Position numbers and translations under genes: made by a program. 60,744 nt of DNA from the NCBI GenBank assembly GCA_018304505.1, contig JAGVWA010000007.1, positions 1 through 60,744 on the forward strand. Direction: 5' to 3'. Below the pieces are notes generated by a model, which saw nothing but the letters and a program-made list of their open reading frames with translations, had not been told where the DNA came from and searched no databases. Source of the DNA: Nanobdellati archaeon (GTDB lineage Archaea > B1Sed10-29 > JAGVWA01). Shown piece after piece: positions 31,276 through 34,039 of the stretch (position 1 is its first letter; each line of letters starts with the position of its first letter).

Positions 31276-31620
31276 ATGGAAATAAGCTTTACTGGCAAGG
31301 TTGCGTCTAAAAATGACATAGACATGGTTACTGGTAGGGCTCTTTGGGTAGGCTCATGGGAAAAGCAGTTTGACGCTAACCAGGACAGCATCCTCGTGTG
31401 CCCCAAGACGGATTTTCTTGATGTCTCGAAACTCGCGAAATTTAGGGCCATTGTGTCTGCTACAGGCGGCGCGCTGTGCCACGCAGCCATCATTGCCAGG
31501 GAGCTGGGCATACCCGCGATAGTCGGGGTTGGAATAGAGAATTATGAGAAAGTCAAAACTGGAGATGAGCTTCAGTTGAACATGCTCACAGGAGAAATCA
31601 CTTGTGACGGAGGTAAGTAA
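31276..31620 (+). CDS. Stand-alone PEP-utilising enzyme mobile (phospho-His swivel) domain
   Basis: TGRA, ILVCPKT, TGGALCHAAIIARELGIPAIVG with the conserved His, GD.L.LN..TG.I. Confidence 0.88.
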   Translation: MEISFTGKVASKNDIDMVTGRALWVGSWEKQFDANQDSILVCPKTDFLDVSKLAKFRAIVSATGGALCHAAIIARELGIPAIVGVGIENYEKVKTGDELQLNMLTGEITCDGGK

Positions 31621-31749
31621 ATGGACTTGAGTCTAGGTACAACCACGTATGGTGGTTGGGAAGCAGACGGCTGGGAGAAAGACAACTGGAAAAGTGACAG
31701 CGATGGGATAGACCACTGGAAGGCAACCGACAGGGGGCAGGGCCAGTAG
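31621..31749 (+). CDS. Putative RiPP precursor peptide, 42 aa, Trp-repeat (not in ORF track)
   Basis: MDLSLGTTTYGGWEADGWEKDNWKSDSDGIDHWKATDRGQGQ; GGAGGT Shine-Dalgarno 6 nt upstream; ATG directly follows the upstream stop; lies immediately before a radical SAM/SPASM gene. Confidence 0.75.
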   Translation: MDLSLGTTTYGGWEADGWEKDNWKSDSDGIDHWKATDRGQGQ

Positions 31750-31750
31750 C

Positions 31751-31790
31751 AAAACCAGGGGGGCTCCTTTGCTCCCACTCGGTTTTTTTT
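31751..31790 (+). terminator. Hairpin plus T8 tract between peptide gene and radical SAM gene
   Basis: aaaacc..gggggc-tccttt-gctccc..ggtttttttt. Confidence 0.55.
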
Positions 31791-31808
31791 GGGGGGGTGT
31801 AAATCTTT

Positions 31809-33083
31809 TTGAAAACTATAGCTGAAAACGAATTCAGGAAACTCATAAGAGTACGCGATGACTTTAAGGTATTTCCAAAAAATTATAGCCCCGTGGACGT
31901 TCTTGGGGAGACAAGGGATTACGCCACGGTTCCTGTTACGAAACAAACAATTGTTTTTGAGGTTACAAACGCCTGCCCCATGGGCTGTGAATATTGTTTT
32001 ATTTCGAAAATAAATAAACAAGAGCGCCTCAAGCTTGCCGTCAACACCGAGGAGAACGTGGAAAAACTTTTGGATTATATGCGCTCAGCGGATCTTGATT
32101 TTGACTTGATTTTCCACGGTGGCGAGCCATTGTTGGCCAAGGGCCTGATAAAAAAGGTTGTTGATTCTATTAAGCACAGCAGAATGCTTAGAAATCGAGT
32201 TGCGTTTTCAATGCAGACTAGCGGTAAAGGCATGACCAGTGATTTTCTTGACTGGTTGATTGACAACGGGGTAAGTATTGGCGTGAGTGTTGATGGGCTC
32301 GCCAAGGGGCTTCGTGACTCATCGCCAGGCATTGAATTGCTAAAAATGCTTAATGAGCGCGGAAAAAGGGCCGGCCTCGTAGTTGTTGTTAACTCATCTA
32401 ATCAAGAAACGCTGTTTGAAGATTTTAAAAAGCTCTATAATGATTTCGGGGTGCGTGGATTCAACTATAACTCCGTAATTTCTGACAACAAGCATCAATT
32501 GCCAGATCTTGGAATAGTGCGCGAGCAAATGGAAAAAATCACCAACTACGTGCTGCAGAATAATTTGACTCCGAGTTTGAATCCGATGCAAATGTTTGCA
32601 GAGCGGCTCGCTGGTGGTGGGGGATCCCTGTGCTATGACGATGGGTGTGGGGGTTTCAAGAGGATAATCGCTTTCTCCACAGATGGCAAGTTCTATGCCT
32701 GTGATTCGTTAACAGACAACCCTGCATACAAGGCTGAGGGGCCAGGGGAATTTGCAGAAAAAAGGAAAGCCCTTTTGAAGGACGTCATAAAAATGAAAAC
32801 CTCTCTGTCATGCAGCACATGCAAGTATGGTTATGTGTGTTGCCTGCCGTGTATTGGAAAAGTAAGCCTCTTTGGCTCATCTGAGAAAACCATGAAGCAG
32901 GCATGTGAATACAACAAGGTTTTCCTGGACATCCTTGTAGAAAAAACACTTGACAACCCGCTGAATCTTTATCATTTTATTGGACTGGGTAGACAGCCTT
33001 CAAGGCGCGACGTGTTGCTGGCATACTCCAGGCCGTCTGCGGAATTTCATCCATTAAATCGCATTGGGGGTGAAACCAAGTGA
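31809..33083 (+). CDS. Radical SAM/SPASM domain protein (anSME/peptide-maturase type)
   Basis: CPMGCEYC, IFHGGEPLL, GVSVDG; SPASM cysteines CYDDGC, YACD, CSTCKYGYVCCLPC, QAC; TTG start after GGGGGGGTG. Confidence 0.92.
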   Translation: MKTIAENEFRKLIRVRDDFKVFPKNYSPVDVLGETRDYATVPVTKQTIVFEVTNACPMGCEYCFISKINKQERLKLAVNTEENVEKLLDYMRSADLDFDLIFHGGEPLLAKGLIKKVVDSIKHSRMLRNRVAFSMQTSGKGMTSDFLDWLIDNGVSIGVSVDGLAKGLRDSSPGIELLKMLNERGKRAGLVVVVNSSNQETLFEDFKKLYNDFGVRGFNYNSVISDNKHQLPDLGIVREQMEKITNYVLQNNLTPSLNPMQMFAERLAGGGGSLCYDDGCGGFKRIIAFSTDGKFYACDSLTDNPAYKAEGPGEFAEKRKALLKDVIKMKTSLSCSTCKYGYVCCLPCIGKVSLFGSSEKTMKQACEYNKVFLDILVEKTLDNPLNLYHFIGLGRQPSRRDVLLAYSRPSAEFHPLNRIGGETK

Positions 33084-34039
33084 AAGAAATCAAGGGGATA
33101 CATGGTGAGCCCAGGCCCGATTTTTTCAACAATTACACAAAGAGGCTAGAGCTCACCAAAGACAACCTGCTGCGGATCCTTAACGAGGTAGGGAACGCTC
33201 TTGCTTACCGATTTTTAGGCGCCAATGAGGATATCTTGTATGACATCAAAACCGATAGGGGAGAGTACATTGTCGCTGACGGCAAGGTTTCTGAAAAACT
33301 GGACTCTACTAAGTTTGAAATCCATTTAGATAAGCCCTCGCCGCAGGTTGAAAAAGTTAAGGCGAACATGGATTATCACATCAATGGATTCAAGTTTGCC
33401 TTTCTGAAAAATGATTTCAATGCCTTAGTGCATCACTATGCAAACTTCTATGCCAACTACCTGATATTTATAGAAATTAAGAGCCAGTTTGAGAAAATGA
33501 TTGATGCAGACGATGGCGAAATAGAAGGTAAAATGCTAATGCATATAGTGCCATCGTATTATTACGGTGTGTATACTGATCCTGTTTTCTCTAAATTCAT
33601 AGAAAGTGGCAGCTTCAAATTCGACAGGGAAGAAATAATAACATACAGAAAAGAGGCACTGTCTCAAGACCCATTGAAGTATTATTTCTTTAGGTTGCTG
33701 GATTTCTCAGTAGAATACTTGGACACGTATTACATACTCTCAACTGTAATGCTATATTTTCTCTCAAAAAGGAACGTTCCCAAGAACGTGTTTTTGAATG
33801 CAGTTAAGGAATCAAAGTTTGAAAACCGAGAGGCAACAGATTATTTCATGAGCTTTACCAACTATGACAACTGTGCTTATTTTAGTTTAGATAACGAAGA
33901 CCAGAAGCTCACTTACTATGTTAATGTTGGACGAATGACTGGCGAGCGATTCTTCTCAAAAGAACTCCTCGTAGACAACTACCCTCGCTACCCATTTTCT
34001 ATGCTATTGATACAAGAAGAACTGAACATCAAAGGTTGA
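33080..34039 (+). CDS. Soluble hypothetical protein translationally coupled to the radical SAM gene
   Basis: GTGA start/stop overlap, GGGGGTGA SD; Tyr/Phe-rich, no recognised motif. Confidence 0.75.
   Translation: MKEIKGIHGEPRPDFFNNYTKRLELTKDNLLRILNEVGNALAYRFLGANEDILYDIKTDRGEYIVADGKVSEKLDSTKFEIHLDKPSPQVEKVKANMDYHINGFKFAFLKNDFNALVHHYANFYANYLIFIEIKSQFEKMIDADDGEIEGKMLMHIVPSYYYGVYTDPVFSKFIESGSFKFDREEIITYRKEALSQDPLKYYFFRLLDFSVEYLDTYYILSTVMLYFLSKRNVPKNVFLNAVKESKFENREATDYFMSFTNYDNCAYFSLDNEDQKLTYYVNVGRMTGERFFSKELLVDNYPRYPFSMLLIQEELNIKG

Follow-up and report, generated by a model that had tools for sequence, protein, structure and literature searches.

The 60,744-nucleotide contig JAGVWA010000007.1 of the Nanobdellati archaeon assembly GCA_018304505.1, referred to here as the window (the whole stretch of DNA analysed), carries at positions 31276–34039 four co-oriented genes on the plus strand. 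They encode a free-standing mobile or “swivel” domain of phosphoenolpyruvate (PEP)-utilising enzymes, a short peptide rich in tryptophan and aspartate, a radical S-adenosylmethionine (rSAM) enzyme of the SPASM type and a partner protein of no named family. A first-pass annotation, made from the letters of the DNA, had proposed that they form a cluster for a peptide made by the ribosome and altered after translation (RiPP) in an archaeon of the small-genome type. The window constitutes contig C21 of a genome of 917,116 bases in 21 contigs, with a completeness of 92.8%, and the genomes of its relatives measure 0.3–1.3 Mb. Together with these small genomes, the archaeal Nre and TrmB-type genes of the window and the origin of related loci in Ca. 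Woesearchaeota and “uncultured archaeon” records suggest a DPANN-type archaeon. The genome occurs in habitats of the groundwater type. The cluster lies inside a stretch of ~9 kb (28.5–37.5 kb) of lower guanine-plus-cytosine (GC) content, with ordinary chromosomal genes on either side, and the four DNA runs over the locus derive from the same strain and show zero differences.

All four open reading frames (ORFs) were found at the positions and on the strand that the first-pass annotation had given, together with the signals that it had described between them. The swivel-domain gene (31276–31620, 114 amino acids (aa)) ends in a TAA at 31618–31620 that abuts the ATG of the peptide ORF (31621–31749, 42 aa). 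A 59-nt spacer separates the latter from the gene of the rSAM/SPASM enzyme (31809–33083, 424 aa), which starts with TTG and whose TGA (33081–33083) is overlapped, in the form GTGA, by the GTG start codon of the partner-protein gene (33080–34039, 319 aa). Shine–Dalgarno (SD)-like runs could be read on the same strand before each of the last three genes: GGAGGT at 31609–31614, 6 nt upstream of the peptide ATG; GGGGGGGTG at 31791–31799, 9 nt upstream of the TTG of the enzyme; and GGGGGTGA at 33066–33073, 6 nt upstream of the GTG of the partner. The first gene has no SD sequence, as would fit an archaeal transcript that is leaderless or has a short leader; a TATA-like box (TTTATATA, 31245–31252, plus strand), identified by reading the sequence, is found ~24 nt upstream of its ATG. 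The start codons of the cluster genes are supported by the orthologue alignments described below, in which conservation begins at the first residues. The spacer downstream of the peptide gene contains a run of eight T residues (31783–31790, plus strand). A hairpin proposed earlier in this spacer (31751–31786) folds no better than shuffled sequences (z −1.21; 25 of 200 shuffles fold as well), and it was set aside as a terminator, which leaves the T8 run as a plain sequence fact; the run may act as a partial archaeal terminator that raises the ratio of peptide to enzyme transcript, and a short transcript of swivel and peptide would be expected from it.

Orthologous clusters and the candidate precursor peptide

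Loci related to the cluster were recovered from public genomes and metagenomes with the partner-family alignment. They represent two further lineages beside that of the window, each with all four genes and with its own Trp-rich peptide sharing the motif W-x-x-D-x-W. The first (L037, from a metagenome-assembled genome titled Ca. Woesearchaeota, 29% GC) has the order rSAM enzyme, 311-aa partner, 115-aa swivel and 43-aa Trp-rich ORF, the last preceded by the SD sequence AGGAGGTG. The second (L038/L039 and L036, 24–26% GC) begins with a 41-aa Trp-rich ORF, which has an AGGAGG SD upstream in L038/L039, followed by the rSAM enzyme, a 320-aa partner, a 620-aa protein and a 114-aa swivel; L038 contains a second copy of the peptide upstream. 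Strong SD sequences thus precede the peptide genes in the window and in the orthologous loci. The first-pass annotation had held that its proposal would fall if homologous enzymes lacked similar peptides nearby or belonged with sulfatase maturases. Instead, the orthologous enzymes keep adjacent Trp-rich peptides and do not fit the anaerobic sulfatase-maturating enzymes (anSMEs), and the neighbourhood search that it had suggested returned a swivel, a partner homologue and a Trp-rich acidic short ORF beside them in L036–L039. A short precursor gene adjoining its modifying enzyme across lineages is the generic mark of a RiPP cluster, and it is found here. The family is rare and patchy: it occurs in 1 of the 31 genomes of the phylum of the window, and a sample of 401 genomes of the order to which that of L037 belongs gave a single solid match.

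The 42-aa peptide of the window (MDLSLGTTTYGGWEADGWEKDNWKSDSDGIDHWKATDRGQGQ) contains four Trp, nine Asp plus Glu and zero Cys, and comprises three W-x-x-D units, at W13, W18 and W23. Only two of the 5,487 six-frame genome ORFs of 30–60 aa combine at least four Trp with at least eight Asp plus Glu; the window peptide is one of these two, and it is the one with GGAGGT six bases upstream. Its composition is more than chance would give. On seven contigs precisely this ORF has been recorded by gene callers, which shows its callability alone. When the peptides of the window, of L037 and of L038 (both copies) were aligned, residues M1, L3, W13, D16, W18, W23 and D26 were invariant, and W-x-x-D-x-W was present in 4/4. 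The number of W-x-x-D units per peptide is 3, 2, 3 and 3, against a shuffle mean of 2.25; their sum of 11 was reached by 0 of 20,000 composition-preserving shuffles, a test that measures conservation of the pattern and not four independent events. The D-x-W motif is also enriched in the four peptides (3, 3, 2 and 1).

The radical SAM/SPASM enzyme

The third gene product carries the cluster motif C56-x3-C60-x2-C63, preceded by ~45 residues, and matches the Pfam families PF04055 (44.8 bits, cut-off 29.5) and PF13353. SPASM domains are characterized by the seven-Cys pattern Cx9–15Gx4C … Cx2Cx5Cx3C … C, and the enzyme contains C280-x12-G293-x4-C298, C335-x2-C338-x5-C344-x3-C348 and C366, plus C275. 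The earlier description of a SPASM radical SAM protein is therefore borne out by the CxxxCxxC motif and by a full set of cysteines, but no match to PF13186, the SPASM model of Pfam, was obtained at E ≤ 0.01, and the assignment is derived from the pattern of cysteines and from the alignment of the enzyme, over its full length, with the SPASM maturase models of NCBIfam. The CxxxCxxC motif and the SPASM cysteines are invariant in 3/3 orthologues, which are 36–42% identical to the window enzyme.

The enzyme reaches the cut-off of zero rSAM families in NCBIfam. Its top four models are PapB (88.6 bits), HxsB (71.6), QhpD (66.9) and CbpB (66.9), followed by the CXXX-repeat (65.3), YhhB (63.5), anSME (57.4) and DynA (50.6) models; judged by these profiles, the nearest models are all of peptide or protein maturases. 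The nearest sequences in the PDB are ChlB (9gm3), CteB (5wgg), 8vpo and an anSME (4k36). Each of the more obvious assignments falls well short of the corresponding threshold. For anSME (TIGR03942) the cut-off is 349.45 bits, and the 92.8%-complete genome yields 0 matches to the sulfatase family PF00884, which widens to the whole genome the earlier remark that the window lacks a sulfatase; the anSME reading was removed because the genome has no sulfatase. For the ranthipeptide maturase PapB (NF047865) the cut-off is 340 bits and the window peptide contains no Cys, on which ground thioether formation was removed as the conserved chemistry. Among the triceptide synthases, YhhB has a cut-off of 445, AmcB scores 48.2 against 425 and GrrM 38 against 310, and the conserved unit of the peptides is W-x-x-D. 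As regards darobactin and dynobactin maturases, the DynA cut-off is 450, DarW scores 36.2 against 650, and DarE lies outside the 25 best models.

We consider it very improbable that the short ORF is incidental and that the enzyme matures a protein, either the swivel or the partner, in the manner of anSME or QhpD. The anSME and QhpD models do align across the full enzyme, and neither the swivel nor the partner is ever missing, with occasional fusion to the rSAM enzyme. However, Trp-rich ORFs with a shared core occur in all four orthologous peptide genes despite the 24–47% identity of the partner proteins, and the genome is devoid of sulfatases.

The partner protein

Pfam, NCBIfam, PADLOC and PHROGs contain no family that matches the 319-aa protein. 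Among 5.8 billion proteins, a word-indexed search retrieved this protein alone, and an exhaustive HMMER scan of 1.84 billion representatives yielded five relatives with 25–47% identity; the members of the family are 24–47% identical among themselves. It had been called an orphan, and this holds in the sense that its family is unnamed and has no Pfam match, but not entirely, as there are five distant relatives, one of them fused to an rSAM enzyme. In this fusion (P0021, 736 aa) the partner domain occupies residues 437–736, behind an rSAM/SPASM domain sharing 39% identity with the window enzyme over 385 aa (E 8e-94). The fusion ties the third and fourth genes of the cluster functionally. The partner-family alignment contains 22 invariant positions, including D98-Y99, R190-K191 and D208. 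Two scans of genome contigs gave no other genomic contexts for P0019–P0021.

No fold was assigned to this protein. Its ESM Atlas model is poor: it has a predicted local distance difference test (pLDDT) value of 0.44, its structural template-modelling (TM) values are all ≤0.30, and it gave no usable feature match. Prediction of a complex of enzyme, partner and peptide, in which the peptide was scored, gave 0.30 and 0.25 against a mark of 0.32, values that speak neither for binding nor against it. Profile alignment with hhalign of the partner to the accessory proteins of the sister modules described below, to two swivel-adjacent families of ~310–370 aa, to the N- and C-terminal domains of the PEP synthase PpsA and to the pre-swivel regions of RPH-like enzymes gave no value above 20%. 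Only the L038 protein of 620 aa stood out, its C-terminal half reaching 94.7%. This 620-aa protein lies within the orthologous cluster in L038 (5616–7478), L036 (2244–4106) and L039 (2432–4294), and its N-terminal half shows a weak, colinear similarity to the rSAM barrel (hhalign 37%) and lacks CxxxCxxC; it may be an inactivated fusion of an rSAM enzyme with a partner protein.

The swivel domain

The 114-aa product of the first gene consists of the PEP-utiliser mobile domain alone (PF00391, 66.4 bits, cut-off 23.1), with the carrier residue His69 located in GGALCHAAIIARE. In NCBIfam it aligns with PEP synthases and RPH-like enzymes solely over their swivel segment. The carrier His and the R-E pair downstream of it are kept in 31/31 lone or fused swivel domains examined. 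A phylogenetic tree places the swivel of the window together with the L037 and L038 swivels (support 98/93), and the four genes therefore appear to travel together. The genome contains five PF00391 matches and one match to PPDK_N (PF01326), the latter in a complete 758-aa PEP synthase (PpsA) on contig C3. Neither a PPDK_N nor a PEP-binding domain was found in the cluster, and no nucleotide-binding domain is detectable in it with Pfam or hhalign.

This last observation is what one would expect if, in the same cluster and with the same substrate, the swivel were a regulatory or docking module and did not phosphorylate the peptide. It would then either sense the PEP/pyruvate status, the phosphorylation of its His switching the complex of enzyme and partner, or serve as an adaptor holding the peptide; such a role is also favoured by the fact that in both the window and L037 the swivel gene lies directly upstream of that of the peptide. 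We regard it as unlikely: the full phospho-carrier loop is kept in 31/31 domains, as catalytic phosphotransfer needs, although a regulatory phospho-His would need it too, and no precedent was found in the open-access literature searched.

Swivel domains and radical SAM genes in related genomes

The surroundings of swivel domains were surveyed in a census of 25 PF00391 ORFs of up to 400 aa, or fused to an rSAM enzyme, in the 31 genomes of the phylum. The census is based on reading each locus; the PF04055 map of 41 relatives covers 150 listed matches of 481. Outside the census lie the PF00391 ORFs of the phylum of 502–717 aa (5 rows) and 1056–1181 aa (4 rows), the rows of full-length PEP synthases and pyruvate phosphate dikinases (PPDKs), and two rows from beyond the phylum (407 and 469 aa). 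Of the 25 swivels, 13 adjoin or are fused with an rSAM enzyme (one such rSAM gene has an in-frame TAA), 9 have no rSAM gene within ~4 kb and 3 are cut by contig ends. The chance of an rSAM gene within ±2.5 kb is ~6% (309 PF04055 matches in ~24.1 Mb). In the two genomes outside the phylum that hold L037 and L036, 7 of 8 short swivels stand beside an rSAM gene, one of them convergently. The association of a lone swivel with an rSAM enzyme and a peptide, which the first-pass annotation had singled out, is not peculiar to the cluster of the window and recurs in these archaea.

Two of the 13 cases are fusions, with the rSAM part first in genome G008 (contig C15) and the swivel first in G001 (contig C6). 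The neighbours of the G008 fusion are orthologues of the 261-aa and 206-aa proteins mentioned below. The G001 fusion still has a short Cys/Asp/Tyr-rich ORF upstream, a further point against the idea that the short ORFs are incidental and that a protein is matured. The swivels linked to rSAM genes are not monophyletic in the tree, in which so short a domain is poorly resolved. In 10 of 17 sister modules the rSAM gene has next to it a short ORF of acidic aromatic or Cys-rich composition, and four of these ORFs have W-[IT]-D-T-Y-[GS]-[DE] in common. Genomes contain several modules with differing peptides, three in G000 (the genome of the window), four in G010 and five in G042.

Two modules of G000 lie on its contig C15. 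The one at 39051–42309 (L023 5051–8309) comprises a 46-aa ORF ending in a core of the W-I-D-T-Y-G-D type, a 446-aa rSAM enzyme, a 132-aa swivel and the 261-aa and 206-aa proteins, which are conserved in G008 and G016. The other, at 3756–6240 (L022 3756–6240), contains a 439-aa rSAM enzyme, a Cys-rich ORF of 48 aa and a protein of 349 aa that consists of a swivel plus an extension and has a 58% identical paralogue encoded on contig C18. A further module is found immediately downstream of the orthologous cluster (L039 4835–6108 / L047 1–2378, G042:C101), with a Cys/Asp/Tyr-rich short ORF, a 359-aa rSAM enzyme, a 271-aa protein and a 101-aa swivel, so that modules of this kind can stand in tandem. 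A search with the C-terminal part of the G008 fusion gave, among the 72 proteins listed, none with both PF04055 and PF00391. Proteins of 470–590 aa from bacteria of the candidate phyla radiation (CPR) and from archaea (P0031, P0041, P0042, P0049, P0053, P0066, P0071 and P0079) have a C-terminal PF00391 domain and no PPDK_N, some of them also with PF27448 or helix-turn-helix (HTH) domains; they form a broader group of swivel proteins in which no nucleotide-binding domain is recognisable.

All nine swivels without a linked rSAM gene are tightly paired with a protein of 307–371 aa that belongs to no Pfam family, in two sequence groups. In one (L050, L054, L055, L057 and L059, from G001, G008, G010, G011 and G006) the swivel is translationally coupled to a family of 307–348 aa, whose neighbours, judged by eye from their N-termini, appear to be a polyprenyl synthase, an isopentenyl-phosphate-kinase-like protein, an IDI2-like protein and a class-I lysyl-tRNA synthetase; this pair may represent a split phosphotransferase, as yet undescribed, with a link to the metabolism of isoprenoids. 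In the second (L052, L053, L056 and L058) the swivels are paired with unrelated proteins of 319–371 aa in varied neighbourhoods. A relation of the Group-I swivel partners to RPH, suggested by an Atlas cluster with 21% PF27448 (Rph_4th), was set aside as unconfirmed (hhalign 61.5% to one pre-swivel region); the window partner is not involved in it. A swivel plus a protein of ~300 aa is a general two-gene unit in these genomes, and the window pair has the same shape. By hhalign, however, these partner families show no relation to one another or to the domains of PEP synthase. That lone swivels pair elsewhere with unrelated ~300-aa proteins, for instance beside isoprenoid genes, resembles a generic plug-in and is a further argument for a regulatory or docking swivel.

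Comparison with described systems

RiPP systems built on rSAM/SPASM enzymes are well established, and the closest parallels are those of the triceptide maturases (ChlB/XyeB/YhhB), DarE, DynA and StrB, in which, as in the window, an rSAM/SPASM enzyme stands beside a short peptide with repeated aromatic motifs. The motif of triceptides has three residues, whereas the W-x-x-D unit of the window has four, with an invariant Asp. The YhhB, DynA, AmcB and GrrM models align partially or over the full length with the window enzyme, all below their cut-offs, and ChlB is the solved chain nearest to it by sequence. Unlike these cyclophane maturases, the window system has a dedicated partner of ~320 aa from an unnamed family, a phospho-His swivel domain and an archaeal host. 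ChlB is described as a triceptide synthase with a native YDR motif (PMC11499958).

PapB is the best NCBIfam model, aligning with residues 48–349 of the window enzyme and differing in that its cut-off of 340 is missed, and CteB (SCIFF, 5wgg) aligns with residues 47–370. Both have two auxiliary clusters in common with the window enzyme; in contrast to their systems, the window peptide is devoid of Cys, and the invariant residues of its core are W and D.

The donor to the swivel in PEP synthase is usually an ATP-grasp domain, and RPH-like enzymes pass the phosphoryl group of His to a bound small-molecule substrate. The window swivel keeps the canonical loop of PEP synthase, PPDK and RPH, GG-x-x-[CS]-H-A-A-I-x-x-R-E. 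It differs from the swivels of those enzymes in standing alone, its genomic partners being an rSAM enzyme, a peptide gene and an unnamed protein; PF01326 is restricted to the PEP synthase of contig C3, and hhalign of the partner against the domains of PpsA stays below 20%. An ATP-grasp enzyme combined with a SPASM protein has been described in graspetide loci (PMC8939145), and these resemble the window in that a SPASM enzyme is joined by a partner of the phosphoryl-activating kind on a peptide rich in Asp/Glu. None of the four window proteins matches an ATP-grasp family, and the partner aligns with the N-terminal domain of PpsA at less than 20%. The accessible text of PMC8939145 has zero occurrences of “PEP-util”, “phosphoenolpyruvate” or “swivel”. 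More generally, searches of the open-access full-text literature gave no paper in which a PEP-utiliser swivel domain is linked with rSAM/SPASM enzymes or with RiPPs, in agreement with the earlier remark that the combination was not recognised as a described family.

The pairs PqqE/PqqD and MftC/MftB likewise consist of an rSAM/SPASM enzyme and a partner whose gene is fused to it in some lineages (here in P0021), and they act on a short peptide. The window partner differs in being ~320 aa long, not PqqD-like and without a Pfam match, and the window enzyme does not reach the PqqE and MftC cut-offs. Short peptides are the starting material from which such enzymes, with a partner protein, make pyrroloquinoline quinone (PQQ) and mycofactocin, and the peptide of the window could by analogy give rise to an intracellular cofactor or small molecule, not to a secreted bioactive peptide. 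Support for this comes from the resemblance of the dedicated, sometimes fused partner to PqqD and MftB, from the place of QhpD (66.9 bits) among the best full-length NCBIfam alignments and from the absence of an exporter or leader peptidase conserved in the three lineages. We nevertheless hold it to be quite improbable. The PQQ and mycofactocin family cut-offs are not reached; and the cores are repetitive, with 2–3 W-x-x-D units, and several modules with different peptides coexist in one genome, so that diversifying natural products fit better than a cofactor.

Genomic surroundings of the cluster

At the edge of the lower-GC stretch, on the minus strand (28702–30316), the gene of a DUF6036 nucleotidyltransferase (219 aa) overlaps that of a 323-aa HTH protein of the TrmB/MarR type, which also matches CasR/Csa3-like PADLOC models. 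Directly upstream of the cluster (30531–31178, plus strand) are a 68-aa ORF and a 144-aa protein with a sub-threshold match to retropepsin-like aspartyl proteases (PF13975, 24.7 against a cut-off of 28.2) and to the PADLOC candidate PDC-M52B. This protein was not counted as a leader peptidase because it is not conserved in the orthologous loci. Downstream follow a 299-aa protein (34287–35186, minus strand) with weak PDC-S21 matches in PADLOC and no Pfam family, and a 328-aa Cys-rich protein (35295–36281, plus strand), also of no Pfam family, with a hydrophobic N-terminus ending in GMGC that looks lipoprotein-like by eye.

Such neighbours raise the idea that the cluster belongs to a variable island as a module of conflict or defence, for instance with an antiviral rSAM enzyme, and has no part in peptide maturation. 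The lower-GC stretch with its nucleotidyltransferase and HTH pair and its weak PADLOC candidate matches would agree with this, as would the patchy distribution (1/31 genomes of the phylum, one solid match in 401 of another order) and the match of the N-terminal part of the enzyme to pVip models (42 bits). That match is, however, limited to the generic rSAM core (residues 48–170), the enzyme has a full SPASM domain and aligns over its full length with peptide maturases, and neither the partner nor the peptide belongs to a PADLOC or PHROG family. We therefore give this explanation hardly any weight; a RiPP can, besides, be a weapon in conflict, so that it overlaps with a peptide-modification cluster. 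A viral origin of the island was discarded, PHROGs having given merely generic rSAM, kinase and regulator matches.

Proposed pathway

The orthologous clusters, the shared core of the peptides and the absence of a sulfatase support the earlier proposal of a RiPP-type peptide-modification cluster in an archaeon of the small-genome type. That these four genes are the parts of a peptide-maturation cluster is, in our judgement, highly probable. The best explanation of the whole, to which we would give a probability of about 0.6, is a RiPP-type cluster in which the rSAM enzyme and its partner would cross-link Trp residues and the swivel would contribute a phosphoryl-transfer step.

In the pathway that we propose, the role of the peptide as substrate, the kind of cross-link and the transfer of phosphate by the swivel, with its target, are what we infer from the sequences. 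The 42-aa ORF would be the precursor, with a short leader beginning M-[DE]-L and a core of W-x-x-D units around W-x-x-D-x-W. The rSAM/SPASM enzyme, which appears to have no recognition domain of its own, would act as a unit with the 319-aa partner and would install radical-mediated cross-links on the Trp residues, most likely, by analogy with cyclophane-forming SPASM maturases, between Trp and either the Asp at the third position after it or a neighbouring residue. The His of the swivel would carry a phosphoryl group to the peptide or to the complex of enzyme and partner. It would be charged in trans, as the only PPDK_N (ATP-grasp) domain of the genome lies in the PEP synthase. The phosphate could remain on the product, activate an Asp carboxylate or regulate the enzyme.

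Transfer of the phosphoryl group to the peptide itself is a tentative part of this scheme, which we would not presume on the present sequences. Doubtful, too, is the broader notion that the free-standing swivel is a phosphoryl shuttle in peptide maturation and part of a RiPP toolkit of the DPANN type. Such a shuttle might phosphorylate the cross-linked peptide, or it might transfer its phosphate from His to Asp, making acyl phosphates on the Asp of W-x-x-D; in the latter case a radical cross-link and a phosphate-driven step would cooperate on one substrate.

Several observations weigh against a RiPP-type cluster with cross-linked Trp and a phosphoryl-transferring swivel. The three lineages share neither a conserved peptidase nor a conserved exporter, an uncommon state for a RiPP that is secreted, and the genome has 0 matches to PF05402, the PqqD-like family of RiPP recognition elements (RREs). 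The recognition element, if there is one, would thus not be of a known type, and the partner is the obvious candidate for the role; RRE-like N-termini noticed by eye in the sister rSAM enzymes were dismissed, as they have no family-level support and PF05402 is absent from the genome. The partner-family profile has no match in Pfam, and hmmsearch with it against PDB sequences gave one match at chance level (E 0.073). As a possible source of the phosphoryl group, the genome has a single PPDK_N domain, outside the cluster. The 9 of 25 lone swivels without a nearby rSAM gene imply that the swivel is not specific to rSAM systems, and 7 of the 17 sister modules have no short ORF passing the composition filter or meet a contig end. 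By hhalign, the partner families of the sister modules have no detectable relation to the 319-aa family or to the domains of PEP synthase (below 20%, most below 2%), and the combination of a swivel and a ~300-aa partner is an architectural pattern. The counts and shuffle tests overstate independence, since the peptides are homologous and the genomes related. Finally, no RNA runs carrying the locus were found.

Significance

Archaea with such small genomes are thought to live attached to hosts and to have kept few biosynthetic genes, and to our knowledge almost nothing has been known of rSAM/SPASM RiPPs in them. Here, at least three rSAM/peptide modules are kept in a genome of 917 kb. New are a family of precursors with W-x-x-D repeats, a family of rSAM partner proteins backed by a fusion, and a recurrent and apparently undescribed link of peptide-modifying rSAM enzymes with a phospho-histidine carrier domain. 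If the swivel does transfer phosphate in the pathway, this would represent a new enzymatic logic for RiPP biosynthesis and would give a hint to the role of the many lone PEP-utiliser domains in CPR and DPANN genomes. Were the swivel to act as a shuttle, it would be the first PEP-utiliser carrier domain in natural-product biosynthesis, borrowed from PEP synthase.

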